A model generated the notes under the pieces. It was given only the letters and a program-made list of their open reading frames with translations. It made no database searches and was not told the DNA's origin. A program made the position numbers and the translations under genes. A stretch of 61,686 nt of DNA, counting the filler, from Deltaproteobacteria bacterium (GTDB lineage: Bacteria; JAUYMQ01), in assembly GCA_030698575.1 (NCBI GenBank). It is 14 parts of 14 records of this genome, joined end to end, with 100 filler letters (N's around TTAATTAATTAA, not from the genome) between each part and the next. Parts side by side here need not be neighbours in the genome. Positions count along the whole stretch, not along the records: positions 48,367 to 53,514 come from JAUYMQ010000186.1; 13 more parts are not named here. The stretch is one strand, 5' to 3'. Every line of letters starts with the position of its first letter. Position 1 is the stretch's first letter. This document shows positions 1 to 61,525 of this stretch, one piece after another.

Positions 1-167
1 CTTTATCCGGCATGGCTACGAAGGGCGAAAGCCGACTCGAGCTCCTCTTGCGGAGTTGGCGGCAATTCGCCACACACAGGCATGAATCGACGACCCCGGC
101 CGCAATAACGGTCGGGGTCGTCGTTCACAACCCGCCGCGCCCACGGCGCGGCGTCCATTTTGGCTCC

Positions 168-1363
168 TGTGCTTGGCGAATTACTAATTACGCCGCCATC
201 GGGAGCTTGTACAGCCCCCGGCAATGAGCTTGCCACCGGAATCGCCGCACCTCAACCCAGCGGCGGGGCCTTTCCCCGCCGGCCTCCGCAGGCGTACCAC
301 CCCCGAGCGACGCGTGCGCCCGGTGCTCATTGTAGTACTCTTTGAACTCCCCCAGCTTCCGCTCCAAGTCCTTGGCATTCCAGAATAATGTTTGGTCCAG
401 GAACTCCCGGCGGGTAGTCCCGACCAACCGCTCAACGAACGGATGCGACAGCGGCACATACGCCACCGTCTTGATCTCCTCCACTCCGAGAATACGCAGA
501 TTGGCTTGCCATCGGTGATACTCGAAGAGCGGATCGTTGTCCGTACTCAGGCAACGAGGAACGCCCATCAGCGCCACGGCCTCGTTGAACATCCGGCAAA
601 CCGCGACGCCGTCGACGTCGCCCACATGGACCGAAAAGCCGATGATGCGCCGCGTGAACTGGTCCATGATCACCATGACCCAGTGGGTCCGGAGCAGCAT
701 CGACTCGCAGCGAAAGAGATCCATGCTCCACAGGCTGTCCTTCATGTGCCCGAGGAAGGTGAGCCAGGATGGCCCGCCGTCCCCGGGTCTCAGATCGTAG
801 TACTTGGCGAGGACCCGCCTGACCACGTCCTTGTCGATATCGATGCCGAAGTCATGGGCGATCTGCTGCGCGATCCGTGGGTACCCGAATCGGGGATTCC
901 GACGCTTCATTTCGACGATGATCTGGATGAGCTCCTGGGATGGCCCCTTCGGGCCGGGCGTCCCTCGCCGCTGGGGCGTGTAGAGCAGCCGGTATTTCCG
1001 CTTCTTGAGCGCATCGTGAAAGCTCAACAACGTCGAGGGCCTGAGGATGATGGCGACCCGGGGAATGCGGCGCTCACCGAGAAGAAGTGACCAGAAGCCG
1101 AACAGAAGGCGGTCGAGGGCGGAGAAGTTTGGAGCCCGATGGCGGGACCGGCCGACGACCAAGAGCTGCTGCTTCAGGAGAACGCTCTCGGCAACGATGG
1201 CACGCCCGCCGCCGGAGCCGAGGAGCCTGGCGATCGTCGTCAGCAGGTGCCCGAGGAGGATGAATAAGGCTCTCATGGCGCGGGAGCGTAGGTCAGAATG
1301 CCGGCTGGGGCAAGCCGACCGAATCCCTGATTTTCAGCCACAAATTGGAATTCGCCAGGCACA
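168..1363 (-). mobile_element. Insertion sequence, IS481-like (TGT...ACA ends, rve transposase)
   Basis: TGTGCTTGGCGAATT (168-182) is the inverted copy of AATTCGCCAGGCACA (1349-1363), 14/15 match, enclosing one integrase-core ORF; no target duplication visible. Confidence 0.75.
188..1276 (-). CDS. Integrase core (rve, DDE) domain transposase
   Basis: HTH segment (NPRFGYPRIA), WSMDLF...IMDQFTRRIIG, STDNDP, FVERLVGT.RRE.LD, YYNEHRAHASL motifs. Confidence 0.9.
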   Translation of the reverse strand: MRALFILLGHLLTTIARLLGSGGGRAIVAESVLLKQQLLVVGRSRHRAPNFSALDRLLFGFWSLLLGERRIPRVAIILRPSTLLSFHDALKKRKYRLLYTPQRRGTPGPKGPSQELIQIIVEMKRRNPRFGYPRIAQQIAHDFGIDIDKDVVRRVLAKYYDLRPGDGGPSWLTFLGHMKDSLWSMDLFRCESMLLRTHWVMVIMDQFTRRIIGFSVHVGDVDGVAVCRMFNEAVALMGVPRCLSTDNDPLFEYHRWQANLRILGVEEIKTVAYVPLSHPFVERLVGTTRREFLDQTLFWNAKDLERKLGEFKEYYNEHRAHASLGGGTPAEAGGERPRRWVEVRRFRWQAHCRGLYKLPMAA

Positions 1364-3874: not shown

Positions 3875-3974
3875 NNNNNNNNNNNNNNNNNNNNNNNNNN
3901 NNNNNNNNNNNNNNNNNNTTAATTAATTAANNNNNNNNNNNNNNNNNNNNNNNNNNNNNNNNNNNNNNNNNNNN
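3875..3974. other. Artificial contig spacer (first of 13)
   Basis: N-run with central TTAATTAATTAA; others at 9696-9795, 13822-13921, 19023-19122, 25101-25200, 28036-28135, 31178-31277, 38229-38328, 41360-41459, 44302-44401, 48267-48366, 53515-53614, 58022-58121. Confidence 0.99.
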
Positions 3975-9695: not shown

Positions 9696-9964
9696 NNNNN
9701 NNNNNNNNNNNNNNNNNNNNNNNNNNNNNNNNNNNNNNNTTAATTAATTAANNNNNNNNNNNNNNNNNNNNNNNNNNNNNNNNNNNNNNNNNNNNTACGA
9801 CTCAAGGATCCAGGATTCATCTTTGAATGGGAAGCAATCGCGAACGGGGAAACCATCCGTGTTGAAGTGTGGGTGTCCGAATGGGGTCGCCCAGAGCTAG
9901 CACCTGGAAAAGGTATTGAGCATCTTGAGGGGACGAAGACTCACCATTAGTGGTGGGGCAGGCA

Positions 9965-10054: not shown

Positions 10055-10999
10055 ATGGCCCGCAAGCCACGCGTCCACGCGCCGGGAGCGCTCTACCACG
10101 TCATGCTCCGCGGCAACGCGGGCGCCGACCTCTTCTTCTCCGACCGCGACCGTGTGCTCCTCGAGGGCCTCATCGCCGAGGGCGTCGCGCGTTTCGCGCA
10201 CCGCGTCCACGCTTACTGCTGGATGACCAACCATCTGCATCTGGCCATCCAGGTCGGCGCCGTCCCCCTCTCGAAGGTCATCCACAACCTGGCCTTCCGC
10301 TACGCCGGCTGGCTGAACCGGCAGCAGGGCGGCGTGGGCCACGTCTTCCAGCGGCGCTACGAGGCCCGGCTGATCGACTGCAACCGCTACCTGCTGACGC
10401 TCGTCCGGTACATCCACCAGAACCCCGTGAAGGCCGGGATCGCGCCCCGTCCCGAGGACTACCCCTGGAGCAGCCACCGCGCCTATCTCGGCCGGGACAA
10501 GGCTCCGTGGCTCACGACCGCAGCGGTGCTGTGCTGCTTTGGCGAGCGGGTGGGGGAGAGCCGGCGGCGCTTCCAGGCGTTCGTGGACGAGGTGGTGCCG
10601 GGGGAGGACGCAGGAAGCGAACTCGGTGAAGCAGAAAGTGGAGCGCTTCTCCCCCTCGAGAGCTTCGATCCCGAGGCCGAAGACAGCGCCCTGACACGGA
10701 CGCCGCCCGCCCCATCGCTGGAAGATCTCTGCGCAAGGGTCTGCCACGAGATGGGCGTGAGCCCGGCCGAGCTGTCAGGGCCCTCGCGCGTCCGGCGCCT
10801 CGCGCGTGCGCGACACCTGATTGCCTGGCTGGCACTGAACCTGGAGTGTGGGACGTTGACCGATCTGGCGCGCCGGTTCGGGCGCGACCCGGCGGCGCTC
10901 TGCCGGGGCGTCGAGCGGATTGGAAAGGAAATCCAATCGAACGCTGACCTACGCCGGAAGATCGCGCGCTGGTCCGAAGCGCCTCCAACAAGTCAATAA
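10055..10999 (+). CDS. REP-associated tyrosine transposase (Y1/HUH) with C-terminal DnaA_C-like HTH
   Basis: MARKPR..PGALYHVMLRGN, AYCWMTNHLHL (HUH), GHVFQRRY, YIHQNPVKAG, YPWSSH. Confidence 0.92.
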   Translation: MARKPRVHAPGALYHVMLRGNAGADLFFSDRDRVLLEGLIAEGVARFAHRVHAYCWMTNHLHLAIQVGAVPLSKVIHNLAFRYAGWLNRQQGGVGHVFQRRYEARLIDCNRYLLTLVRYIHQNPVKAGIAPRPEDYPWSSHRAYLGRDKAPWLTTAAVLCCFGERVGESRRRFQAFVDEVVPGEDAGSELGEAESGALLPLESFDPEAEDSALTRTPPAPSLEDLCARVCHEMGVSPAELSGPSRVRRLARARHLIAWLALNLECGTLTDLARRFGRDPAALCRGVERIGKEIQSNADLRRKIARWSEAPPTSQ

Positions 11000-13821: not shown

Positions 13822-13922
13822 NNNNNNNNNNNNNNNNNNNNNNNNNNNNNNNNNNNNNNNNNNNNTTAATTAATTAANNNNNNNNNNNNNNNNNNNNNNN
13901 NNNNNNNNNNNNNNNNNNNNNC

Positions 13923-18962: not shown

Positions 18963-19124
18963 CGGTGCTAAACGCGGATGAACTCGGCGACGCCGGGGGC
19001 GGAGCGGAGGGCGCAAAGCTCTNNNNNNNNNNNNNNNNNNNNNNNNNNNNNNNNNNNNNNNNNNNNTTAATTAATTAANNNNNNNNNNNNNNNNNNNNNN
19101 NNNNNNNNNNNNNNNNNNNNNNCG

Positions 19125-25100: not shown

Positions 25101-25233
25101 NNNNNNNNNNNNNNNNNNNNNNNNNNNNNNNNNNNNNNNNNNNNTTAATTAATTAANNNNNNNNNNNNNNNNNNNNNNNNNNNNNNNNNNNNNNNNNNNN
25201 GTCTAAGTCGGCGTTTAAACGATCGCCCACCTG

Positions 25234-27693
25234 ATGTCTGACCTGGATCTCCCTGACGAGGTAGCTGAGGCAATCGCCGCCCACGACGAGACGGATGCCG
25301 TGCGCCTGCGTGCGCTCGAGCAGGCCCTCGTCACGAAGCGGGGGGAGGCGGTCTCCGCCCGCAAGGAGTCGGGGATCGAGGACATCTGGCTCGCGGCCGA
25401 GGAGGCCTACCTCGGGATCGACGACGCCAACCGGAGCTCGTTCGCGGGCGCCCGGTGGGCGAAGCCGACCAACATGACGGGCCCCTTGACGAGCGACCAG
25501 CGGCGTACCGCGGCAGACGGTGAGACCAAGTCGACCGCCTTCGTCCGGATCACGAGCCGCTACGTCGACGCTGGCGCAGCGAAGCTCTCCGAGATCCTCC
25601 TCCCGGCCGACGAGAAGGCGTTCTCCTTCTCGAGCACGCCCGTCCCGGAGCTGATCACCGCCCTCAAGGACACGAGCCAAGCCGTAGTCGACGGTGTCCC
25701 CCTCGAGCGCGACGCGCGCCCGGGGGAGGCTCAGCAGCTGCCTGGCGCCGCACTACCTCCTACGGGTGGACTCCCGCTGGCGCCAACCGCCGGCGCGCTG
25801 CCCGCGGCGCCAGGCTCCGGACCGGGCATCCCGATCACGGTGCAAGATCTGGCGCAGGAGAAGCAGGAGCACGCGAACACGGCCGCCAAGAAGGCCGAGA
25901 AGCGTATCCACGACTGGATGGTGGAGTCGCGCTTCCGGGCCGAGGGACGCAAGATCGTATTCGATGCGTCGCGTATTGGTGTCGGGGTCCTGAAGGGCCC
26001 CTTCCCGCGTACTCAGATTTCGCGCGCCCGCGAGAACGGCAAGCTCAAGATCAACAAGAAGGTCGTCCCCGGGTACGAGTGGGCCGACCCCTGGAACATC
26101 TACCCCGACCCCGCGTGCGGCGAGAACATCCAGAATGGCGACCACCTCTTCCACGCCGAACCGATCGGCAAGAAGCAGCTCCGCAAGCTCAAGGGGCTCA
26201 AGGGGTACATCGATGGGGCGATCGACAGGGTCCTGAGCGACGGACCGGCCGGCGTTGCCGTCGACAACCAGAAGCCGAACGCGAAGCACAACCGTCACCT
26301 CTTCACGGCCTGGCACTACTACGGGACGCTGACGCACGAGGAGGTGCTCGCGACCCGCACGGTCGACGAGGGCGACCTTCCACTGGCGGGCGACGTCTAT
26401 GTCATCTGCACGATGGTGAACGACACCCTCATCCGGGCGACCATCAACCCGCTGGATTCGGGCGAGATCCCCTACCACGCGGTCCCCTGGCAGCGACGCC
26501 CCGGGCACTGGGCCGGCGTCGGCGTCGGGGAGCAGATCGCGATGCCGCAGGCGGCGATCAATGCCGCGACGCGCGCGTGCTTCAACAACGCCGGCAAGTC
26601 GGCCGGCAGCGTCATCGTCGCCGACCGAGGCGCCATCACTCCGGCCGACGGCAGCTGGACTCTGACGCCCGACAAGCTCTACTACAAGTCGGCGGACGCG
26701 ACTGCCGACGATGTCCGGAAGGCGTTCGCGTTCTTCCAGGTGCCGAACACGACGCCCCAGTTGATGGTGATCATCGAACTCTGCATGCGGTTTGCGGAGG
26801 AGGTGACGAACATCCCTCTGATCACGCAGGGGCAGTCGGGGAAGACCACGCCCGAGACCTTTGGGGCGACGCAGCTCCAGAACAACAACGCGAACCAGCT
26901 CCTGCGCTCCATCGGGTACGCGTTCGACGACTACATCACCGAGCCGGTGGTGAACCAGTCCTACGAGTACCTCCTCCTCGATCCCGACATACCCGAGGAC
27001 GAGAAGGGCGACTGGAAGATCGACGCTCACGGGTCGGTCGCGCTCGTTGAGCGCGCGATCCAGGACCAGACGGTCTCACAGATGGGTGAGTTCGCGATCA
27101 ACCCCGCGTTCGGGGTCGACCCGAAGCGGTGGTTTGCGGAGTTCTCGAAGACAAAGCATCTGAATCCGAGAACCTTCCAGTACACGCCTGAAGAGCAGGC
27201 GAGGATCGATGCGGCACCGAAGCCGGCCGCGCCCGCCATCGAGGTCGCGAAGATCAAGTCCGCGGACGCGAAGCTCGCGCGTGAGCTCGATAAGGTGCTC
27301 GCGGCGCAGGCAGCGCAGCTCGAGAAGGTCGTCGCCGACGGAGCCAACGCAACGAAGACCGCGATCGCGGAGATGCGCAAAGAGGTCGACGAGCTCCGGG
27401 TGAAGAAGGATACGGACCGCGACACCATTTATGCGCGGGCCGAGACCGAACGCACTCAGGTCGAGCACCGGGCTCGCATGGCGGAGCTCGAGATCCGCGA
27501 ACGCATTGCCATGCTCGATTACGCGAACAAGCGTCAGCTCAAGCTCGACGACGTGAAGAAGGATCTCGCGAAGACCGCGATGACGCTCGAGGCGCAGGAG
27601 CGGATGCAAGCGCGCGAGCAAGGGGCCCAGGTCGCTGAGGCCGCGGCAGAGCCCGCTGGCAAGGCCCCGAACGGTAAAGGATTCACCGCGTGA
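25234..27693 (+). CDS. Probable phage portal protein (podovirus/P22-like, coiled-coil C-terminus)
   Basis: 819 aa; E.IW..AEEAYLG, GVGVLKGPF, DPWNIYPDP, W.RRPGHWAGVG, long helical tail; followed by small head-cluster genes. Confidence 0.72.
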   Translation: MSDLDLPDEVAEAIAAHDETDAVRLRALEQALVTKRGEAVSARKESGIEDIWLAAEEAYLGIDDANRSSFAGARWAKPTNMTGPLTSDQRRTAADGETKSTAFVRITSRYVDAGAAKLSEILLPADEKAFSFSSTPVPELITALKDTSQAVVDGVPLERDARPGEAQQLPGAALPPTGGLPLAPTAGALPAAPGSGPGIPITVQDLAQEKQEHANTAAKKAEKRIHDWMVESRFRAEGRKIVFDASRIGVGVLKGPFPRTQISRARENGKLKINKKVVPGYEWADPWNIYPDPACGENIQNGDHLFHAEPIGKKQLRKLKGLKGYIDGAIDRVLSDGPAGVAVDNQKPNAKHNRHLFTAWHYYGTLTHEEVLATRTVDEGDLPLAGDVYVICTMVNDTLIRATINPLDSGEIPYHAVPWQRRPGHWAGVGVGEQIAMPQAAINAATRACFNNAGKSAGSVIVADRGAITPADGSWTLTPDKLYYKSADATADDVRKAFAFFQVPNTTPQLMVIIELCMRFAEEVTNIPLITQGQSGKTTPETFGATQLQNNNANQLLRSIGYAFDDYITEPVVNQSYEYLLLDPDIPEDEKGDWKIDAHGSVALVERAIQDQTVSQMGEFAINPAFGVDPKRWFAEFSKTKHLNPRTFQYTPEEQARIDAAPKPAAPAIEVAKIKSADAKLARELDKVLAAQAAQLEKVVADGANATKTAIAEMRKEVDELRVKKDTDRDTIYARAETERTQVEHRARMAELEIRERIAMLDYANKRQLKLDDVKKDLAKTAMTLEAQERMQAREQGAQVAEAAAEPAGKAPNGKGFTA

Positions 27694-28035: not shown

Positions 28036-28135
28036 NNNNNNNNNNNNNNNNNNNNNNNNNNNNNNNNNNNNNNNNNNNNTTAATTAATTAANNNNNNNNN
28101 NNNNNNNNNNNNNNNNNNNNNNNNNNNNNNNNNNN

Positions 28136-31177: not shown

Positions 31178-31278
31178 NNNNNNNNNNNNNNNNNNNNNNN
31201 NNNNNNNNNNNNNNNNNNNNNTTAATTAATTAANNNNNNNNNNNNNNNNNNNNNNNNNNNNNNNNNNNNNNNNNNNNG

Positions 31279-38228: not shown

Positions 38229-38328
38229 NNNNNNNNNNNNNNNNNNNNNNNNNNNNNNNNNNNNNNNNNNNNTTAATTAATTAANNNNNNNNNNNNNNNN
38301 NNNNNNNNNNNNNNNNNNNNNNNNNNNN

Positions 38329-41359: not shown

Positions 41360-41499
41360 NNNNNNNNNNNNNNNNNNNNNNNNNNNNNNNNNNNNNNNNN
41401 NNNTTAATTAATTAANNNNNNNNNNNNNNNNNNNNNNNNNNNNNNNNNNNNNNNNNNNNAATAGCGTTATTATCGGGAAAAACAACCCCGCCGGAGGCG

Positions 41500-44301: not shown

Positions 44302-44401
44302 NNNNNNNNNNNNNNNNNNNNNNNNNNNNNNNNNNNNNNNNNNNNTTAATTAATTAANNNNNNNNNNNNNNNNNNNNNNNNNNNNNNNNNNNNNNNNNNN
44401 N

Positions 44402-48227: not shown

Positions 48228-48366
48228 TACCTGATTTGCCCCTGCGGGGCAGACCGGGTGGTGCTGNNNNNNNNNNNNNNNNNNNNNNNNNNNNNNNNNN
48301 NNNNNNNNNNTTAATTAATTAANNNNNNNNNNNNNNNNNNNNNNNNNNNNNNNNNNNNNNNNNNNN

Positions 48367-48633
48367 GGCCTCAACCGTCGGTGTTCCCTCAACCACCTTC
48401 GCCAGGCTCGTCAGCACCTGTGGATAGATGTCGCGGCTATAGTTGTCCGCGTCCTCTCGCCGATCCCACAGACTGATCGCAACCGCTTCGGAGCGGTCCG
48501 CGGCAACGAACGAAATCTCGTCCTTGAAACCGTTCTGCTTCCGCAGCAGGGGCAGGACGTCCCTCTCGAGCGTCTGGGTAAACTCACCGGCCGTGTTGGC
48601 CTTCAGATGCATGGACACATTGCGTGCGTACAT
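48367..48633 (-). CDS. ABM-like dimeric alpha-beta barrel protein (3' truncated)
   Basis: MYARNV, VLPLLRKQNGF, AISLWD..EDA..Y; AAGGAG RBS. Confidence 0.75.
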
Positions 48634-48692
48634 ATCGACTCCTTGGCTACTCCGACGTGAACCTACGTGACCACTACGTGTGCCTGTGCGTG

Positions 48693-48779
48693 TTACAGCC
48701 TCTCTCCGCTCAGTACATCCCGCCCATGCCACGCCCCCGAGCGGGCCTCTGTATTGAATTCGAGGTACTTGGCAGCCAT
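48693..48779 (-). pseudogene. groEL: groEL N-terminal remnant (28 aa)
   Basis: AGGAAGGAG RBS then MAAKYLEFNTEARSGAWHGRDVLSGERL*; matches GroEL start MAAK...F..EAR. Confidence 0.7.
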
Positions 48780-48794
48780 CTACTCCTTCCTCGC

Positions 48795-48857
48795 TCAGCT
48801 GAGCTTCGCGATGACGTCGGATTCCTTGATCAGGATGATCTCTTCCTCCCCGTGCCA
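48795..48857 (-). pseudogene. groES: groES C-terminal remnant
   Basis: WHGEEEIILIKESDVIAKLS* resembles GroES end (GEEYLI..ESDILA); no in-frame start; directly before groEL remnant. Confidence 0.7.
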
Positions 48858-48874: not shown

Positions 48875-48937
48875 CTAGTTAACTAGTGGAAGTTTCAGAT
48901 CTGTGAGTGTATATTCATGTACTTAACTTGTCAAGTA
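48875..48937 (-). promoter_or_regulatory. Leftward sigma70 promoter with bipartite operator
   Basis: Minus-strand TTGACA (48934-48929)-17 nt-TACACT (48911-48906); box ATGTACTTAACTTGTCAAGTA (48917-48937) and palindrome CTAGTTAACTAG (48875-48886). Confidence 0.78.
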
Positions 48938-49018
48938 CACCAATCGATTTACCCAGTCTTTGTCCCAATGGTTCACCTATTACGGTTAATGACCCAAGTC
49001 GGCCCGAGGAGGAATCCC

Positions 49019-49876
49019 GTGGATGTCCCATTTGTGATCCGGCACCGGCTGGAGGAATTGGGGTTGGAGCAGCAGGATCTCGCCCGCGCCGCCCGCGTGA
49101 CCGACTCCTACATCTCGCAATTACTCACTCGGAAGAAGGCGCCCCCCGCACCGAGCCGCACCGCCATCTATGCCCGAATCGACAAGTTCTTGAAGCTTCC
49201 GAGCGGGGAGCTGGCGAAGCTGGCGGAGTTACAGCGCAAGGAAGAATTGAAGCGGGAATTGGGGGAGGCACCCGTGCCCCTGTATCACGAGTTTCGTGCG
49301 TTGATCCTGCGCAAGTGCAATCGTGAGACGGAAAAACACGTCCGCGCGATCTTTGAACAGCAGCCCTTCGGCGAGCTCGAACGCCTAGTCACCCAGAAGC
49401 TGCTGGATGTGGTCAAGCGCGTGGCGAAAGACGAACTCGACAATGACTACTGGCTCCGCATGGTGGCCCAAGTCAGCGGCCGCAGCTATGAGGAGATGCG
49501 GGTCATCGTGCTCGAGTTCCTCGACACGGACATCTTCCACGTGTCCGCTGAGAACTGCGTCTCGTTCTTAGATCCGCTGATCGAATCCTGGGACATCGAC
49601 CTCGCGACGTTTGGTCTGGAGATTGTCTTAAACCACAGCGTCGTCCCAGGGCAGGCGAAGCGATTCGAGTTTGTCGAGCGGGAAGCCGAACCGCCCGTCA
49701 GCGAAGAACCGGGGCTCCAGGAATTCCTGCAGGATCCTTCCCTCAGCGGCACCGCAACCGCCGAGGAAGTTGAGTTTCTCAAGGGGCTGACGTTCAACCA
49801 CAAGCGACCGACGCCCCTCTATTACTACCGGGAGTTACAGAACTTCAGAGACCCGCTCCATTTTCGCACCCCGTGA
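49019..49876 (+). CDS. XRE-family HTH regulator with uncharacterised C-terminal domain (285 aa)
   Basis: GAGGAGG RBS + GTG; IRHRLEELGLEQQDLARAARVTDSYISQLL HTH. Confidence 0.85.
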   Translation: MDVPFVIRHRLEELGLEQQDLARAARVTDSYISQLLTRKKAPPAPSRTAIYARIDKFLKLPSGELAKLAELQRKEELKRELGEAPVPLYHEFRALILRKCNRETEKHVRAIFEQQPFGELERLVTQKLLDVVKRVAKDELDNDYWLRMVAQVSGRSYEEMRVIVLEFLDTDIFHVSAENCVSFLDPLIESWDIDLATFGLEIVLNHSVVPGQAKRFEFVEREAEPPVSEEPGLQEFLQDPSLSGTATAEEVEFLKGLTFNHKRPTPLYYYRELQNFRDPLHFRTP

Positions 49877-49886
49877 GAGTCTTCGG

Positions 49887-49994
49887 CTAGTTAACTTGAC
49901 CAGGTCAACTAATACCCGTTGCAGCCGATATTACTTGACAAGTTAAGTACATTACAGCAGGTTGGAGTGGTTAGGACTGCGAATAGTTAACTAG
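49887..49994 (+). promoter_or_regulatory. Operator/promoter region of hsp20
   Basis: CTAGTTAACTTGACCAGGTCAACTAA (49887-49912), TACTTGACAAGTTAAGTACAT (49932-49952, contains TTGACA), TAGTTAACTAG (49984-49994) abutting the RBS. Confidence 0.78.
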
Positions 49995-50008
49995 AAAGGA
50001 GCCACGAT

Positions 50009-50485
50009 ATGTTTGTTACCCAGAGGGACCCGATGCTGGACTTGCTGCATCAGCTGGAGCACCGGATGGGCCGGAGCTTCAACGGCGAGCTGTTACGCGC
50101 GTCCGAGTGGCCGGTACCCGAGGCCGCGACGACCGCCTGGCTGCCGCTGGTGGACATCTTCGAGGAGCCCGATGTCATCCGCCTGGTGGCGGAGGTACCC
50201 GGGGTGAAGCCCGAGGACGTGAAGATTTCGGTAGAGGGCAACCTGCTGACGATCGCGGGCACGAAGGAGCAGGTGGCGGAGGAGAAGGCCGAGAAGGTCC
50301 ATCGCTATGAGCGGACCTACGGCGCCTTCGAGCGGACGTTCAGGCTGTCGGCCTCGATCGATCCCAACAAGATCAAGGCGACTTACGACCTCGGGGTGCT
50401 GACGATCGCGCTGCCGAAGGCGGAGACGGCCAAGCCCCGTCTGATCGAGGTGGCAGTGACGCCACAGAAGGCGTTGAACGCCTGA
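50009..50485 (+). CDS. Hsp20/alpha-crystallin small heat-shock protein
   Basis: W.PLVDIFE, AEVPGVKPEDVKI, ERTYGAFERTF.L, A.Y..GVLTI.LPK. Confidence 0.95.
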   Translation: MFVTQRDPMLDLLHQLEHRMGRSFNGELLRASEWPVPEAATTAWLPLVDIFEEPDVIRLVAEVPGVKPEDVKISVEGNLLTIAGTKEQVAEEKAEKVHRYERTYGAFERTFRLSASIDPNKIKATYDLGVLTIALPKAETAKPRLIEVAVTPQKALNA

Positions 50486-50565: not shown

Positions 50566-51030
50566 CTATGCGGCCGTCGGCGGCAACTCGACGATCTCGA
50601 GCCAGTAGCGGCCCAGCACGTTCATCGCCTCCACCAGCCCCGAGAACGTGACGGGCTTCCTAATGAAGGAGTTCACGCCCAGCTGGTAGCTGCGCACGAT
50701 GTCCTGGTCGAACCCTGACGTAGAGAGCACGACGACCGGAATGTCGCGCAACGTCTCGTCTCCCTTGATCACCTTCAGGGCCTCGCGCCCATCCATCTTC
50801 GGCATGTTGAGGTCCAGCAGGATCAATCCGGGACGCGGGGCCTTCCCGGTCTCCCCCGCGTACTCGCCGCGCTGGTAGAGGTAGTCGAGCAACTGGTCGC
50901 CATCCTCGACGAAGCGCACCGCGTTCGCGACGTGCGCGTCTTCCAGCGCCTGCTGGGTGAGCATCCGGTCGTCCGCATCGTCATCGCAGATGAGGATCGT
51001 GATGGGGATTTTGTTCTTGTCTCGGGTCAT
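50566..51030 (-). CDS. Single-domain response regulator (Rcp-like)
   Basis: ILICDDD, PGLILLDLNMPKMDG, GVNSFIRKP. Confidence 0.92.
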   Translation of the reverse strand: MTRDKNKIPITILICDDDADDRMLTQQALEDAHVANAVRFVEDGDQLLDYLYQRGEYAGETGKAPRPGLILLDLNMPKMDGREALKVIKGDETLRDIPVVVLSTSGFDQDIVRSYQLGVNSFIRKPVTFSGLVEAMNVLGRYWLEIVELPPTAA

Positions 51031-52208
51031 GACATGAATCCTTTAGCCGCCTGCGTGACCGGTAGGGTGACGGTGAACGTCGCCCCCTGGCCGGCAGTGC
51101 TCGTGGCGGCGATCGTGCCGCCGTGCCGCTCGACAATCTTGCGGCAAATGGCGAGGCCAATGCCGGAGCCTTCGTACTCCGCGCGGCCGTGGAGGCGCAC
51201 GAACATCCGGAAGATCTTGCCCGCGTGCTTCTCGCTGAACCCGATCCCGTTGTCCGTCACCGTGATGGTACAGTCCGCGCCGCCGGGGGGGGGGCTCGAG
51301 CAGCTGAGCCGGACCACGGGCGGCATGTCCTTCTGGCGGTATTTGAGCGCGTTGCCGAGCAGATTCTGCAGCAGCTGGCGCATCTGAAGCGCGTCGGCGT
51401 CGATCACGGGCAGCTCGCCCACCTCCACGCGGCCGCCGGACTCCGCGATGGACGTCTCGAGGTCGGCGATGACCTCCCGGGCCACCCGGGCGAGGTCGGT
51501 GCGGACGAACGGCTGGACGCGCGTGGTCACCTGCGAATACAGGAGCAGGTCGCTGATCAGGGTGCGCATGCGAGCGGCCGCGCTGAGCATGCGGGCGAGG
51601 TGCTCCCGCGCATTGCCTTCGAGCGCCGGCCCCGCGGACGTGTTCAGCAGGTCGCCGAACGACAGGATCTTGCGCACCGGCTCCTGCAAGTCATGGGACG
51701 CGACGGACGCGAACTCATCCAGCGCCGCGTTGGAGCGCTCGAGCTCCCGGTGCTGCTCCGCCAGGCGCCATTCCGTGAGGCGGCGAGCCGTGATGTCCTC
51801 GATCGCCAGCAGGATGATCCGCGGGAGGTTGGGTCCTTGCGACACGAGCCGGGCGTTGAGCAGCATGATCTTGCGGCCGATGCCGGGAAACTCGTGGTCG
51901 ACGTCGAAATCATTCAATTGCGGCTCGACCGCGAGCTTGTCGCGCAGCAGCTCGCGGAGGGGTGCAATGTCCCATTGGCCGTCGCCGAGCGTGAAGAGGA
52001 CCTCGCCGATCGTGTCCTGGGGCTCTACGCGAAAGGTGCGAAAGAAAGCCCGATTCGCCTGCGTGACCCGGAATGCGGCGTCCAGGACGATGAGGGGCTC
52101 CCGGACGGTGTCGATGATATCGAGCAGCAGCCGCTGGGCGGCGGGCACATCGCGCGCCGCCTCGTCGGGGGGGGGGAGGGTCATGGGCAACGACTCGGTG
52201 GCAGGCAC
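51027..52208 (-). CDS. PAS-domain sensor histidine kinase
   Basis: PAS (REPLIVLD..ANRAF), ASHDLQEP, QNLLGNALKY, DNGIG, GSGIGL. Confidence 0.92.
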   Translation of the reverse strand: MPATESLPMTLPPPDEAARDVPAAQRLLLDIIDTVREPLIVLDAAFRVTQANRAFFRTFRVEPQDTIGEVLFTLGDGQWDIAPLRELLRDKLAVEPQLNDFDVDHEFPGIGRKIMLLNARLVSQGPNLPRIILLAIEDITARRLTEWRLAEQHRELERSNAALDEFASVASHDLQEPVRKILSFGDLLNTSAGPALEGNAREHLARMLSAAARMRTLISDLLLYSQVTTRVQPFVRTDLARVAREVIADLETSIAESGGRVEVGELPVIDADALQMRQLLQNLLGNALKYRQKDMPPVVRLSCSSPPPGGADCTITVTDNGIGFSEKHAGKIFRMFVRLHGRAEYEGSGIGLAICRKIVERHGGTIAATSTAGQGATFTVTLPVTQAAKGFMS

Positions 52209-52314: not shown

Positions 52315-52962
52315 ATGCCTCCGAAAGACACGATCAGGGTTGCCATCATCGACGACAATCGCCTGGTGCGCGAAGCGCTCACGGCGATGCTCAATAGACT
52401 CACGGACATCCACGTCGTCTCCTCGGACGTCGCCGACTCGGCATCGCTCGCCGAGACGAAGCCGGACGTGCTGCTGCTCGACGTGGGGCTGCGGGACCAG
52501 GACAGCCTGCGCGTGGCCGCCACGCTCAGGCAGGAGAACCCGGACGCGAAGATCATCGTGATGGATCTCCTCCCGGTGAACGAGGAAATCATGGAGTATG
52601 TGAACGCGGGGGTGTGCGGGTTCGTCCTCAAGGATGCCACCTTCGAGGAGTTCATCGCGACGATCCGGTCGGTCGCTACGGGCACGAAGGTCTTGCCGCC
52701 CCGCATGACGGAATCGCTCTTTTCCCAGATCGCGAAGGAGGTGGACGGCCAAGAGCCCGCGCACGTCCTCGAAGACGTGCGCATGACGCCGCGCGAGCGT
52801 GAGGTGATCGACCTGATTGGCGAGGGGCTGAGCAACAAGGAGATCGCCCAGCGTCTCAACATCGCGACCCATACCGTCAAGAGTCACGTGCGGAACGTCA
52901 TGGAGAAGCTGGCGTTGCACACGCGGCTGCAGATCGCCGCGTATTCCCACCGCGAGGGGTAG
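52315..52962 (+). CDS. NarL/LuxR-family response regulator
   Basis: IIDDN, PDVLLLD, MTPREREV..GLSNKEIAQRL...TVKSHV. Confidence 0.92.
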   Translation: MPPKDTIRVAIIDDNRLVREALTAMLNRLTDIHVVSSDVADSASLAETKPDVLLLDVGLRDQDSLRVAATLRQENPDAKIIVMDLLPVNEEIMEYVNAGVCGFVLKDATFEEFIATIRSVATGTKVLPPRMTESLFSQIAKEVDGQEPAHVLEDVRMTPREREVIDLIGEGLSNKEIAQRLNIATHTVKSHVRNVMEKLALHTRLQIAAYSHREG

Positions 52963-53514: not shown

Positions 53515-53614
53515 NNNNNNNNNNNNNNNNNNNNNNNNNNNNNNNNNNNNNNNNNNNNTTAATTAATTAANNNNNNNNNNNNNNNNNNNNNNNNNNNNNN
53601 NNNNNNNNNNNNNN

Positions 53615-58021: not shown

Positions 58022-58358
58022 NNNNNNNNNNNNNNNNNNNNNNNNNNNNNNNNNNNNNNNNNNNNTTAATTAATTAANNNNNNNNNNNNNNNNNNNNNNN
58101 NNNNNNNNNNNNNNNNNNNNNATCGTGGCGGAGCTCCGCCGCGACCGCTGTCGGGTGCCCGTGACCAATTAGCCTGGCTGTCATCGCCTGGGGCTCGCGA
58201 TCCGCCGGAAGTGCTATGCTTTACTTTGTGAGGTCGGGCCGGCCAGTCCGTAGGGGAGTCTCGCTACTCGCTTCTCCTGCGGCCACGCCTGCGAGTTGCT
58301 CTGGACACGCGCGGAGCGGGTAAGTGGGGGCAAGAAAGCGCCTTGTCGGATGCGGCGA

Positions 58359-58850
58359 ATGACGTTGCAGGAATTCACAGAGAAGCACCCCGCCAGGCCA
58401 CCGCTCCGACCAGCGACCAATGCTGACGAGTTGCGGCAGCTCGGTCCCGCCGATGGAGTGTTGCTTCTCGTTGGAACTCCCGCCGCGGGTCAGACTGGTC
58501 CGCCAGACGATGCCCAGAGTCGGCATCTTTGGGTCTTCAGGAAGGCGCAACAACCAGATCTTCCCTATGTCCTCGAACTTGCTCCGAACGCTGCGCCGAG
58601 GTTGGCCTCGGGCGTGGCCAAACACACGAATCTCACGGGCGGCGGTCACGCCTCGTGTGGCGGCGAACTGTGGGTCGATGTTTCCAATGCCGATCGCCTG
58701 TACGTGAATGGTTGTTCGGGCCGCTACGGGCCAACGTCCCGCGAGGAACTCGATGACGCAGCGCAGGTGTTTCGCGAGCTTGGTTTTGAGGTCGTGAACT
58801 ACGGCTGGGACGATGAAACGCAGAAACCCTTTTGCCAGTACTACCGATGA
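58359..58850 (+). CDS. Hypothetical toxin-like protein (start 58350 or 58359)
   Basis: HLWV, KHTNLTGG..A..GGELW, YVNGCSGRYGP; stop overlaps next start (ATGA). Confidence 0.7.
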   Translation: MTLQEFTEKHPARPPLRPATNADELRQLGPADGVLLLVGTPAAGQTGPPDDAQSRHLWVFRKAQQPDLPYVLELAPNAAPRLASGVAKHTNLTGGGHASCGGELWVDVSNADRLYVNGCSGRYGPTSREELDDAAQVFRELGFEVVNYGWDDETQKPFCQYYR

Positions 58851-60292
58851 CCGAACACAGTGACCGCCTGATCGAAATCGCATTCGGTAGTCGCGCGGCC
58901 AATGCTGAGGCTGCCGCGCAAGCGTCTGGGCGTGTCTACGTTCGCGGCCTGGGCCAACTCGCGGAGGATCACCCGAAGGCTACGGGAAGGCGGCTCACGG
59001 CACTGGAAGCTCTCCGGACCTATGGTATCGAGGTCCTAGCGGAGGTCGGTGCAGAAGGATATGCCAAACTTGCGCGTGCTGCGGAGGTCGCTGGTCGCGT
59101 TCTGAAACTTCGCCGCGAACAGCTCGGTCTTGATCGGCGCCACGTGGCTCTGCGAGCGGGTCTCCCGGAAGACGTCGTACGTGCCGCAGAAGAATCCCGA
59201 AAGCTGTCGATCCGAAGCTATGAGCGTGTCGCGCGAGCTCTGGGCCTCGACGAGCGCTATGTGTCCGTTCGACCCGAACCCGAGGGCAACGAGAGGATTG
59301 CTGTCCGTCTACGAACTATTGGTGAGGCAGACCCACGGCTGGGAGCCGGTACGGTATCGGCGCTCGCTGAAGCTGCATGGGTTGCGATGACTCAGATTCG
59401 GCTCGAAGAAGAACTTGGTCTCGTTCCGCCTCGTACGGGTATCGAGCATAGCAACAACTACGGCACCCCGGGCTTCCCAGCGTACCAATGGGGTTACCAG
59501 CTTGCCGCAGACGCGAGAAGCAAGCTCGGCCTCGGAGCTGGCCCAATCCTCTCAATGCGATCTCTGGCAGAGGAGAGGCTCGGCCTTCCAGTCATTCAGG
59601 CTGAACTGGGGGAGGCCATAGCAGGCGTAACGATCGAAACGGTGTCGCGCCGGGCGATTGTCATAAACCTCTCAGGAGAGAACCGGCACGTCTTCGTACG
59701 ACGCGCTACGGTAGCGCACGAGCTGGGGCACTTGCTCTACGACCCGCAGCGGAGCCTAAGGGACCTTCGCGTTGACGCGTATGGCGACCTTGATAAGCCG
59801 GCGGAGGAACTTCCGGACCCAGTTGAGCAGCGCGCGAATGCATTCGCGGCGGACTTTCTGGTGCCGCAGAGTGAGGCGGTGACCGTCTTCCGATCGGCTA
59901 AGACGGACGGGCTTGGCGAGGTGATGTACCGATTCGGTGTGAGCTTCACGGCGGCACGATATCAGATTTGGAATGGTATTGACCGGAAGGGTCGGCTCGA
60001 AGACCTACGCACCGAACGGCGCGCCTTTCCGGCGGAGTGGGAGGGACGAGAAACGTACACGGTCGACTACCATCCCATTCCCAAGCTTCGACCTACCCGT
60101 GCCGGACGCTTCGGCGCCGTCGCGGCCCGTGCGGCAGAGGAAGGGCTTATCTCGTGGGATACAGCTGGCGAGTGGCTTGAAGTGAGTGCGGACGAAGTGC
60201 GACGTGTCGTGCCTCAGCTGCGCGAGTTGTTCCCTGCGGTGTGGAGCGCTTCTGGGCGCCAGACGCGATTCTCCGGGCTCGAAATTCCATAG
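58847..60292 (+). CDS. XRE-HTH + ImmA/IrrE (M78/DUF955) metallopeptidase
   Basis: LRREQLGL....VA..AGL HTH; RRATVAHELGH, EQRANAFAADFLVP; C-terminal IS...AGEWL. Confidence 0.88.
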   Translation: MTEHSDRLIEIAFGSRAANAEAAAQASGRVYVRGLGQLAEDHPKATGRRLTALEALRTYGIEVLAEVGAEGYAKLARAAEVAGRVLKLRREQLGLDRRHVALRAGLPEDVVRAAEESRKLSIRSYERVARALGLDERYVSVRPEPEGNERIAVRLRTIGEADPRLGAGTVSALAEAAWVAMTQIRLEEELGLVPPRTGIEHSNNYGTPGFPAYQWGYQLAADARSKLGLGAGPILSMRSLAEERLGLPVIQAELGEAIAGVTIETVSRRAIVINLSGENRHVFVRRATVAHELGHLLYDPQRSLRDLRVDAYGDLDKPAEELPDPVEQRANAFAADFLVPQSEAVTVFRSAKTDGLGEVMYRFGVSFTAARYQIWNGIDRKGRLEDLRTERRAFPAEWEGRETYTVDYHPIPKLRPTRAGRFGAVAARAAEEGLISWDTAGEWLEVSADEVRRVVPQLRELFPAVWSASGRQTRFSGLEIP

Positions 60293-60370: not shown

Positions 60371-61525
60371 CTACTCTCGTCCAGACGCCTCGGCCGGCCT
60401 CGCCACGGCGACGACCCTGGTCACCAGGCGCTCGATCGCCTGCCGCTGGTGCCCGGGCGAGAGGTGGGCGTAGCGTTGCACCATGCTGAGGGTCTTCCAG
60501 CCGCCGAGCTCCTTGAGGGTGAGGAGGTCCACGCCTTCCATCGCCAGGCGCGAGGCGAAGGTGTGGCGCGTGTCGTGGAGGCGGAAGTCCTTGATCTCGG
60601 CGCCGGCGACGGCCTCGGGGAAGTCCTTCTCGGCCCAATGGAAGTCCGTGTTGCCGAGGCTGTTCGGGAAGACCAGGGCGGTGGCGTCGAGCGAGCGCGG
60701 GCGCCGAGCGAGTATCGCGCGGACCGCGGAGGTCAGGGGCACGTGGCGGGCCTCGCCGTGCTTGCTCAGCGGGATCGTGAGCACGCCGGCCTTGAAGTCC
60801 AGGTCCTTCCACCGGAGGCCGAGGAACTCCGACTTGCGTAGGCCGGTCTGCAGGAGCACCTGCAGGCGGTCACGGCCCTCGTCGGAGGCGAGCTTCCCCC
60901 GCAGCGCCTTCTCCTCCTCATCGCTCAGATAGCGCACGCGGCCGCTCGGCTCGCGCAGCATCTTCAGCTTGGCGACAGGGTTGCGCTCTGTCTTGCCGTC
61001 GCGGATGGCGACGTTGAAGACGTGCTTGAGGAAGGCATACTCCCGGTTGACGGTGGCCGCTGCGAGAGGCAGGGGCGCCTTCTTCTTGTCGTCATTCTTG
61101 GCGCGGCGTCGCCGGCTCGCCAGGCGCTCGGCCCGGATCTTCTCGAGGTCGGCCGGCGTCACCTCCTCGAGGCTGCGGCTGCCCAAGCGCTCGGTCCAGG
61201 CCTTCCCGTAGCGCTCGTCATTCCGGAAGGAGCGCTTGCCCACCTTGGCCGCGACCAGGTACTCGCGGATCACGTCAGCGAGCAGGTAGGTGGCGGGCCG
61301 GCGCTGATGCCGAGGACATGGCCGCTCCAGCCGCTTGCGCTGGACCTCCTGGGTGGCAAGGCTCTTGGGCCCCACCTGCGCCCGGTGAAGATGGTCGTGG
61401 GAGCAGGCCCAGCGGATCCACCAGTCGCCTCGCTCCCGGCGGCCATCGGGCCGGCGGAGCTCCTGGGTCCCACGGGGGCTTGCGCGCCAGATCACGCCGC
61501 GGCTTCCAGACGTCGCGAGCTTCAT
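60371..61525 (-). CDS. Tyrosine recombinase/integrase
   Basis: ATVNRE, TGLRKSE.LGL.W, SK, HDTRHTFAS, LGGW....MVQRYAHL catalytic motifs. Confidence 0.93.
   Translation of the reverse strand: MKLATSGSRGVIWRASPRGTQELRRPDGRRERGDWWIRWACSHDHLHRAQVGPKSLATQEVQRKRLERPCPRHQRRPATYLLADVIREYLVAAKVGKRSFRNDERYGKAWTERLGSRSLEEVTPADLEKIRAERLASRRRRAKNDDKKKAPLPLAAATVNREYAFLKHVFNVAIRDGKTERNPVAKLKMLREPSGRVRYLSDEEEKALRGKLASDEGRDRLQVLLQTGLRKSEFLGLRWKDLDFKAGVLTIPLSKHGEARHVPLTSAVRAILARRPRSLDATALVFPNSLGNTDFHWAEKDFPEAVAGAEIKDFRLHDTRHTFASRLAMEGVDLLTLKELGGWKTLSMVQRYAHLSPGHQRQAIERLVTRVVAVARPAEASGRE

Follow-up and report, generated by a model that had tools for sequence, protein, structure and literature searches.

The stretch of DNA analyzed here (the window; 61,686 nucleotides (nt) from a Deltaproteobacteria bacterium, assembly GCA_030698575.1) carries a gene for a protein of 285 amino acids (aa) that is probably an autoregulated repressor of chaperone operons, analogous to HrcA with its CIRCE operator yet unrelated to it. 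The gene lies between remnants of groES and groEL on its left and an hsp20 gene on its right, and an earlier sequence-only reading of the window had proposed that it encodes a dedicated regulator with operators on both sides. Comparison with related loci supports that proposal: the regulator gene is linked to chaperone genes, its flanks carry a conserved palindromic motif with a sharp spacing preference, and the sites occupy preferred positions relative to promoters. The left operon in the window itself appears decayed, leaving a gene for a small ABM-like protein. The two genes central to this account are:

49019-49876, + strand: regulator gene, 285 aa, GTG start, N-terminal Cro/C1 (XRE) helix-turn-helix and a C-terminal region of ~200 residues
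50009-50485, + strand: hsp20, small heat-shock protein of 158 aa (Pfam HSP20, PF00011, E 2.3e-24)

In the mechanism we propose, the protein would be a transcription factor of an undescribed family that combines an N-terminal XRE/Cro helix-turn-helix with the ~200-residue C-terminal region. It would bind the palindrome TTAAC-N8-GTTAA, either centered on the -10 hexamer of chaperone promoters or just covering their transcription start, and repress the strong housekeeping-type promoters (TTGACA-17/18-TAnnnT) that drive groES-groEL, hsp20 and the ABM-like gene, and it would repress its own gene through an operator between the regulator promoter and ribosome-binding site. A second, closer-spaced palindrome with the same half-sites, TTrAC-N2-GTyAA, would carry the -35 boxes of two divergent promoters; it corresponds to a 21-nt repeat (21-mer) found on both sides of the regulator gene. 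In the window the regulator would control the decayed ABM-like operon on the left and hsp20 on the right. Heat or protein-folding stress would relieve repression through the C-terminal region, by analogy with HrcA, HspR, CtsR and RheA the likeliest path of the signal.

Chaperone linkage and a conserved candidate operator among relatives

A scan taking one genome per species gave at least 586 confirmed relatives of the regulator, and the loci of the best 80 were compared. Open reading frames (ORFs) of at least 60 aa were clustered, and representatives of the 65 clusters present in at least 3 loci were scanned against Pfam. Neighbors were counted within the fetched flank of up to 5 kb, which was short for some loci. 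The sequence-only reading had expected homologs to be linked to chaperone genes, an expectation borne out by the counts:

groES/groEL: 43 of 80 loci
hsp20: 14 of 80 loci
ABM-like gene: 52 of 80 loci
any chaperone gene (groES/groEL or hsp20): 47 of 80 loci
chaperone or ABM-like gene: 68 of 80 loci

Where the flank reaches at least 3 kb on each side (43 loci), groES/EL is present in 22 and a chaperone or ABM gene in 37. The recurrent neighbors are GroEL, GroES, Hsp20 and the ABM-like protein of ~105 aa, and the usual layout is the regulator, then divergently ABM and/or hsp20, sometimes other genes, and then groES-groEL. The records that hold the 80 loci are labeled as follows:

Gemmatimonadota-type: 38
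Acidobacteriota-type: 31
"beta proteobacterium": 4
Rokubacteria/Methylomirabilota: 3
Nitrospirota-type: 2
Gammaproteobacteria: 1
Limnocylindria: 1

The conserved candidate operator of these loci is an 18-bp palindrome, TTAAC-N8-GTTAA (sometimes N7; consensus TTAACC-N6-GGTTAA), of which a shorter palindrome in the window, CTAGTTAACTAG, is the conserved left part. The spacing between the half-sites was tested as TTAAC-Nn-GTTAA, with at most 1 mismatch, in 78 upstream regions of 230 nt; L064 and L065, whose upstream sequences are identical, were counted once in the motif statistics. The matches were distributed as follows:

N8: 87 matches, in 60 of 78 regions
N7: 32 matches, in 25 of 78 regions
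every other spacing: 0-15 matches each
30 mononucleotide shuffles: mean of at most 1.1 at each spacing

At the same stringency, 681,404 nt (79 loci plus the window contig) contain 144 sites, 139 of them within 300 nt upstream of the starts of the four genes (regulator 88, ABM 30, groES 11, hsp20 10) and 5 elsewhere. Where hsp20 lies 1-4 kb from the regulator (L019, L022 and the second hsp20 of L076), it has the same promoter and dyad, as does groES where it has its own promoter (L020, L024, L064); the boxes named in the sequence-only reading are thus conserved in the flanks of homologs and recur at more distant chaperone promoters. In the 10 loci closest to the window, the only invariant intergenic columns are TTAACTA, TGTACT..ACTTGTCAAG and GTTAA. 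The boxes are the only conserved islands within otherwise diverged intergenic DNA.

These distributions bear on the suggestion that the conserved boxes belong to promoters or leaders and serve something other than the XRE protein, be it RNA polymerase with a special sigma factor, a different regulator or an RNA thermometer, in which case the protein would be a mere conserved neighbor. The most conserved block, CTTGACAAGT, includes a consensus -35, which would be conserved in any case, and acidobacterial loci have a further conserved element in the ABM leader (at least 22 of 80). The dyad, however, has the sharp spacing preference of a site for a dimeric helix-turn-helix protein; it is also found ahead of the regulator gene itself, a place with no chaperone promoter; and regulator and sites co-occur in 139 of the 144 cases. 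Against an RNA element, the distance from dyad to ribosome-binding site varies, the hsp20 leader of the window is no more stably folded than shuffled sequence (z +0.68), and Rfam gave no match on the window locus or on five loci searched. We regard the neighbor explanation as quite unlikely. An RNA thermometer at the palindrome beside the hsp20 ribosome-binding site, considered in its own right, was rejected on the same folding result.

For a promoter alignment, upstream regions were anchored on TGTCAAG, which was found in 78 of 81 sources and in a sensible register in 72; their common pattern is TTAACCA...TAGGTTAATTTACTTnACTTGTCAAGTA. Of the 71 anchored loci, 62 have a chaperone-side promoter of the form TTGACA-16..19-(T/C)AnnnT. 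In 23 loci the operator begins 6 nt ahead of the -10 hexamer and hence is centered on it (e.g. TTAACC-TAATGT-GGTTAA), and in 11, the window included, it begins 14-16 nt past the -10 start. On the regulator side, an A2/T6 -10 (GATTAT, GATAAT) occurs at a fixed offset in 34 of the 71, an upstream TG in 29, and an operator (at most 1 mismatch) between regulator promoter and start codon in 56. Dyads on the -10 or start of near-consensus, optimally spaced promoters, together with a dyad downstream of the regulator promoter, form the geometry expected of a repressor that also represses itself.

Candidate operators and promoters of the window locus

The elements around the regulator gene, from left to right, are:

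48879-48896: operator of the leftward promoter, TTAACTAGTGGAAGTTTC, with 2 mismatches to TTAAC-N8-GTTAA; includes the CTAGTTAACTAG palindrome (48875-48886)
48906-48934, - strand: leftward sigma-70-type promoter, TTGACA (48929-48934), 17-nt spacer, TACACT (48906-48911); 10 of 12 matches in the promoter scan
48917-48937: left 21-mer, palindrome TTAAC-TT-GTCAA / TGTACTT-N8-AAGTACA; holds the -35 of both divergent promoters
48923-48951, + strand: inferred regulator promoter, TTAACT-17-GATTTA, placed by its register with relatives; weak in the window
48972-48989: operator TTCACCTATTACGGTTAA, 1 mismatch, between the regulator promoter and the regulator ribosome-binding site
49891-49908: operator TTAACTTGACCAGGTCAA, 1 mismatch, 26 nt upstream of the -35 of the hsp20 promoter
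49932-49963, + strand: right 21-mer (49932-49952) and hsp20 promoter, TTGACA (49935-49940), 17-nt spacer, weak -10 CAGGTT (49958-49963)
49984-49994: TAGTTAACTAG palindrome in the hsp20 leader, ending 3 nt before the AAGGAG ribosome-binding site; keeps the operator core AGTTAACTA

By repeat search and direct reading, the two 21-mers are inverted repeats, 100% complementary and 994 nt apart, as had been reported from the sequence alone. The 18-nt core of the 21-mer occurs twice at up to 3 mismatches against 0.00 expected (100 shuffles). The mirrored arrangement described earlier is also present: outward from each 21-mer there are 31 nt and then the TAGTTAACTAG core on both sides, the two spacers being unrelated in sequence, while an extra C shortens the left gap to CTAGTTAACTAG to 30 nt when the + strand is read. 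The window has two exact copies of TAGTTAACTA (48876 and 49984), a third with 1 mismatch (49888) and no others; 0.05 matches were expected, and 0 of 100 shuffles had as many as 3. GTTAAC occurs only 3 times in the whole window, each time within this locus, and all operator-like sites of the window fall here as well.

The best candidate operators of the window are those at 49891-49908 and 48972-48989. The former is the core of what had been noted as a third related box; the latter, which the sequence-only reading had missed and whose GTTAA half is invariant across the 10 closest loci, is the presumed site of autoregulation. The operator at 48879-48896 is homologous to the invariant TTAACTA block of those loci and starts ~15 nt after the start of the -10 hexamer, which places it across the region where leftward transcription would begin. 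On the other side of the locus, the palindrome had been described as set against the ribosome-binding site of hsp20, and so it is; (T)AGTTAAC(T) occupies the same place in the hsp20 leaders of relatives. The possibility that CTAGTTAACTAG derives from a synthetic stop-linker, raised by nearby BamHI/BglII sites, was dropped: natural relatives also have the conserved AGTTAACTA block, and the window is rich in BamHI sites (33).

The boxes had been read jointly as operator and promoter elements, and that view now divides. The palindrome belongs to the TTAAC-N8-GTTAA operator, whereas the 21-mer appears to be mainly a shared -35 core, a palindrome of the CTTGAC-N2-GTCAAG type (TTrAC-N2-GTyAA). The part of the left 21-mer reading ACTTnACTTGTCAAGT is the most conserved block among relatives, and the conservation of the 21-mer is in part simply that of the -35 consensus. 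The 21-mer may also be bound, because its half-sites resemble those of the TTAAC-N8-GTTAA dyad. The two copies are identical and the adjacent 31-nt spacers unrelated, so constraint or gene conversion fits them better than recent duplication. As to the outward promoters claimed for both copies, the left one (TTGACA-17-TACACT) was found by the promoter scan; the right one has only the weak CAGGTT at 17 nt and was not called.

Alternatively, the protein might bind the same sites as an activator of chaperone genes, as ClgR is. The operator at 49891-49908 stands upstream of the -35 of the hsp20 promoter, a class I activator position, and the weak -10 might need help. One relative, L002, shares the layout, with one operator upstream of the hsp20 -35 and one downstream of the start, and ClgR (3f51, E 0.06) is among the structural neighbors of the helix-turn-helix domain. 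The -10 hexamers of hsp20 promoters in relatives are CATCTT (L019), TACTCT (L022) and TACACT (L002). Activation nevertheless seems unlikely to us: the operator is centered on the -10 in the 23 loci and covers the start region in the 11 given above, perfect TTGACA boxes with 17-18-nt spacers in 62 of 71 loci need no spacer remodeling, and 56 of 71 have a site downstream of the promoter that serves the regulator gene, all of which are geometries of a repressor.

That the 21-mers are the ends of an invertible or mobile segment carrying the regulator gene, which the sequence-only reading had itself named as what would overturn it, is very improbable. Exact inverted repeats of 21 nt surround a single gene, the regulator is unusually similar across metagenome-assembled genomes (MAGs) labeled as different phyla, and the layout of regulator followed by hsp20 on one strand occurs in 0 of the 80 relatives, so that a rearrangement did take place in the window. 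Relatives, however, have one core copy beside the regulator and others at separate hsp20 or groES promoters; no cluster of recombinases, integrases or transposases is linked in 3 or more loci; tblastn found no match in plasmid or phage collections; each copy of the 21-mer is in register with a -10 box and an operator; and the identities of regulator and GroEL rise and fall together (r 0.64), as they should if the regulator is co-inherited with the locus. The absence of the one-strand layout from the relatives suggests that hsp20 and its control region were probably moved or added in the window.

Several observations weigh against a chaperone repressor. The hsp20 promoter of the window has a poor -10 and escaped the promoter scan, the right TAGTTAACTAG has no recognizable second half-site, and the left operator has 2 mismatches. 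The other contigs of the same genome in the window contain no further site, but they contain no other chaperone gene either. The linkage counts cover the best 80 of at least 586 relatives (68-88% identical), in a family whose more distant members are 40-60% identical, and the taxon labels of short MAG contigs are possibly wrong. Finally, 12 of the 80 loci have neither a chaperone nor an ABM-like gene. Six of these 12 have less than 600 nt of flank on one side; 4 of the 12 have an IF-1-like gene instead and 2 a cold-shock-protein gene, so the family may control more than heat-shock genes. On balance, the autoregulated chaperone repressor remains the reading we think probable.

The regulator protein and known chaperone regulators

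The N-terminal part of the regulator is a five-helix Cro/C1-type DNA-binding domain, which places the protein in the XRE/Cro-C1 superfamily. Pfam HTH_3 scored 23.0 bits at a cut-off of 23, and HTH_31 25.7 bits, just below its cut-off of 27. The AlphaFold2 model (75-sequence alignment; mean predicted local distance difference test (pLDDT) 83.6, predicted template modeling score (pTM) 0.47) comprises the helix-turn-helix (residues 1-57), a long helix (64-82), a helical bundle (89-187), three strands (188-217), a disordered loop and further helices (231-282). A Foldseek search of the full model against the PDB matched only the helix-turn-helix, with HigA, SinR, 434 Cro and C.Esp1396I at probability 1.0 (target template modeling (TM) scores 0.6-0.78, 58-87 columns, E at least 0.019) and no match at E<=0.001. 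NCBIfam holds no model for the regulator; its HigA/HipB models reached 17-18.5 bits against cut-offs of 47.7-71.65, and there is no toxin gene among the conserved neighbors (ABM, groES, groEL, hsp20), which argues against a type II antitoxin of this kind.

The C-terminal ~200 residues matched no Pfam family and no solved fold. When residues 88-285 were modeled separately (pLDDT 82.3), Foldseek gave no PDB match at E<=0.001, the best neighbors being DdrO chains, and an ESM Atlas search of the same residues gave no usable match. Profile searches of the PDB returned nothing significant, and no PDB chain at E<=5 for the C-terminal part. The Foldseek check suggested with the sequence-only reading has therefore produced just one weak lead: in the model, the last ~55 residues may be DdrO-like, the region otherwise having no known fold. 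A two-copy homodimer prediction scored 0.12 against a mark of 0.42 and was not used as evidence either way.

The family is large. A word-indexed search found at least 8000 relatives; the best 120 of these are 87-97% identical, and the only name given to one of them is "transcriptional regulator ... candidate division NC10". Among 50%-identity representatives there were 867 matches at E<=0.001 and 136 at E<=1e-30, many of them fragments, with full-length members down to 41% identity. Compared with the linked GroEL over 22 loci (231 pairs), the regulator has a median pairwise identity of 71.8% versus 70.7% (r 0.64). For a transcription factor, conservation equal to that of GroEL is unusual; it points to constraint on most of the protein surface.

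Dedicated repressors with palindromic operators on chaperone promoters are a well-known kind of regulator, and HrcA is the closest in design. It represses groESL from CIRCE (TTAGCACTC-N9-GAGTGCTAA), a long palindrome whose halves are a fixed distance apart and which overlaps a strong housekeeping promoter or closely follows it, and its gene is chaperone-linked. The protein described here resembles it as an apparently dedicated groESL regulator, with a palindromic operator at a housekeeping promoter and a gene linked to chaperones. It differs in having a Cro/C1-type DNA-binding domain and no HrcA domain, in an operator of the form TTAAC-N8-GTTAA, and in being divergently transcribed and apparently autoregulated from a shared control region. 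At up to 3 mismatches CIRCE was found 0 times in the window and in 1 of the 80 loci, L074, where a near-perfect copy (L074:7336-7362) precedes a second groES-groEL 1.5 kb downstream of the regulator; a single genome can thus contain both the new regulator and the HrcA system.

HspR (of the MerR family, acting at HAIR, CTTGAGT-N7-ACTCAAG), CtsR and RheA repress chaperone or protease operons through inverted or direct repeats near the promoter, and several of them are heat-sensitive or held by chaperones. The predicted role of the new regulator, as a repressor of chaperone operons with sites near the promoter, is similar, but it has no MerR or CtsR domain, is 285 aa long and has a large C-terminal region lacking a known fold. 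The only HAIR match in the window at 3 mismatches is at 61025 (1.25 expected by chance), and there is none at the locus. HrcA, MerR and CtsR are absent from the Pfam matches of the regulator, and HrcA and CtsR also from its NCBIfam matches (HrcA at E<=1). The earlier statement that boxes and protein do not match the HrcA, HspR and CtsR systems therefore stands for CIRCE, for HAIR and for the protein domains, the tandem-heptad operator pattern of CtsR having been outside the search.

Two XRE proteins invite comparison. ClgR, the clp gene regulator of actinobacteria, is a small XRE protein of ~100 residues that activates clp and chaperone genes. It shares with the new regulator the helix-turn-helix, for which 3f51 is a structural neighbor, and the connection with protein-quality-control genes, but the similarity is limited to the helix-turn-helix (~85 columns, E 0.06), and operator and C-terminal region are unrelated. 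DdrO represses the radiation/desiccation regulon of Deinococcus and is itself a cleavage substrate of the IrrE protease. It likewise joins an XRE helix-turn-helix to a helical C-terminal module and represses a stress regulon by binding a palindrome. The last ~55 residues of our model superimpose on the dimerization domain of 6ro6 (target TM 0.74-0.76, root-mean-square deviation (rmsd) 1.9-2.6 A, 51-55 columns), a match that is not significant (E 0.3-1.4); 6jq1 gave E 0.018 but an rmsd of ~12 A, and the new regulator has ~150 extra residues between its two modules. No Peptidase_M78 (COG2856/IrrE-type) protease was found among the representatives of the 65 ORF clusters.

A protein of 486 aa with an IrrE-like Peptidase_M78 domain is encoded at 58832-60289 (+ strand), on a different contig of the window, beside a phage-type integrase (60371-61522, - strand). 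The two genes are probably part of a mobile element, and are of interest only through the weak DdrO-like lead.

The apparently decayed operon, neighboring genes and a possible wider regulon

The window consists of 14 short contigs chained by linkers of the form N44-TTAATTAATTAA-N44, and the locus lies entirely on the contig at 48367-53514. The sequence to the left of 48367 is not its genomic context, and neighborhood across any joint is meaningless. The joints are:

joints 1-7: 3875-3974, 9696-9795, 13822-13921, 19023-19122, 25101-25200, 28036-28135, 31178-31277
joints 8-13: 38229-38328, 41360-41459, 44302-44401, 48267-48366, 53515-53614, 58022-58121

The gene order on the contig is ABM-like (-), groEL remnant (-), groES remnant (-), control region, regulator (+), control region, hsp20 (+), response regulator and PAS histidine kinase (-), and LuxR-type response regulator (+). 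The left part contains:

48367-48642, - strand: ABM-like small protein gene, start at 48642, 3' end cut at the contig end (48367); last gene of the leftward operon; identified by translation and as a member of ORF cluster 4, found in 52 of the 80 loci
48707-48779, - strand: groEL remnant, first ~13 codons (MAAKYLEFNTEAR) fused to the last codons (GMGGMY*, in another frame)
48796-48848, - strand: groES remnant, last ~17 codons (..EEEIILIKESDVIAKLS*), start codon and part of the leader gone

The left side of the locus does face groES/groEL remnants, as had been read from the sequence. By blastn, positions 48738-48848 are 96% identical to L039 644-754 (groEL 5' end, spacer, groES 3' end), after which there is a gap to L039 1055, and the control region of L039 matches again from 48867 onward; 48454-48742 matches the ABM gene and the groEL 3' end of L003. 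Relative to L003, ~1560 bp are missing from groEL (blastn against L003, L008 and L039), and relative to L039 ~280 bp are missing from groES, comprising most of the gene and part of its leader. The flanks of these deletions are 87-96% identical to relatives. From the sequence, the left operon thus appears decayed by clean internal deletions in groES and groEL, with the ABM-like gene remaining, and all that now follows the leftward promoter is short reading frames and that gene. The deletions come from a single contig and may be real pseudogenes or an assembly effect.

The receiver gene 3' of hsp20 (stand-alone; 50566-51030, - strand), the histidine kinase gene (51027-52208, - strand) and the LuxR-type response regulator gene (~52330-52962, + strand) are probably unrelated to the regulon, because none of them recurs in related loci. 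Other contigs of the window carry mobile-element pieces: a weak SU10-portal-like match at 25234-27690 (+ strand; 29.5 bits against a cut-off of 30), an rve integrase at 188-1273 (- strand), and an IS200-like transposase fused to a DnaA-type helix-turn-helix at 10055-10996 (+ strand).

The Pfam ABM match of the ABM-like protein is weak (19 of 30 members at E<=1, best 3.5e-5). Its consensus is FARxVSMHLKPN...NSTFHKIA, and its gene (e.g. L008:2513-2824) is co-operonic with groESL across phyla; it opens the operon in acidobacterial loci and closes it in the clade of the window. Clusters c14, c22 and c34 and DUF6804 lie between ABM and groES in L015, L032, L047, L051, L055, L056, L061, L067, L076, L077 and L080; these conserved genes of acidobacterial ABM...groES-groEL operons may be further members of the regulon. 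The second conserved element, in the ABM operon leader, is TCAGATAACC-N7-TAGTTCAGAT. Its carriers, mostly Acidobacteriota-labeled, include L015, L016, L023, L024, L051, L060 and L077, where it lies ~125-180 nt before the start of the regulator gene. The window lacks it, and there was no Rfam match at L051, L058 and L076.

An IF-1-like gene is found near the regulator in 8 of the 80 loci (L006, L010, L013, L018, L026, L029, L031, L033) and a cold-shock-protein gene in 7 (L028, L030, L038, L040, L044, L059, L075), in some cases in place of chaperone genes and in others in addition to them. Three MAGs have two regulator copies each (L005 and L013, L017 and L022, L011 and L029). These neighbors and duplicate copies are hints of a wider temperature regulon, and paralogs beside IF-1-like or cold-shock genes give a hint that the family may govern temperature responses in both directions.

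As far as our searches reach, the protein family, its operator and the lineages in which it acts would be new; full-text literature searches, judged on titles and abstract openings, returned no description of the regulator. A more ambitious reading, which we put forward tentatively as possible, is that this is a previously unrecognized class of heat-shock repressor beside HrcA, HspR, CtsR and RheA, that groESL and hsp20 are chiefly under its control in major uncultured lineages of soil bacteria (Gemmatimonadota, Acidobacteriota, Methylomirabilota and others), and that its C-terminal region is a sensor of new fold. Sensing might then proceed by heat-labile folding, titration by GroEL or unfolded proteins, redox chemistry of two conserved cysteines (C100 and C180, invariant or nearly so), or DdrO-like cleavage. 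A sensing role of the C-terminal region, if true, would explain why a transcription factor has been kept as conserved as GroEL.

Acidobacteriota, Gemmatimonadota and Methylomirabilota are among the most abundant soil bacteria. To our knowledge, the control of chaperone genes, a textbook subject for proteobacteria, firmicutes and actinobacteria, is essentially unknown in these three groups. The regulator family, the 18-bp operator and the promoter architecture make chaperone control in these lineages directly testable, and the regulon can be read from any MAG through a motif scan. With ~200 residues that match neither Pfam nor a solved structure, the sensing mechanism may be new, and the operator/repressor pair could serve as an orthogonal, possibly heat-responsive, switch.

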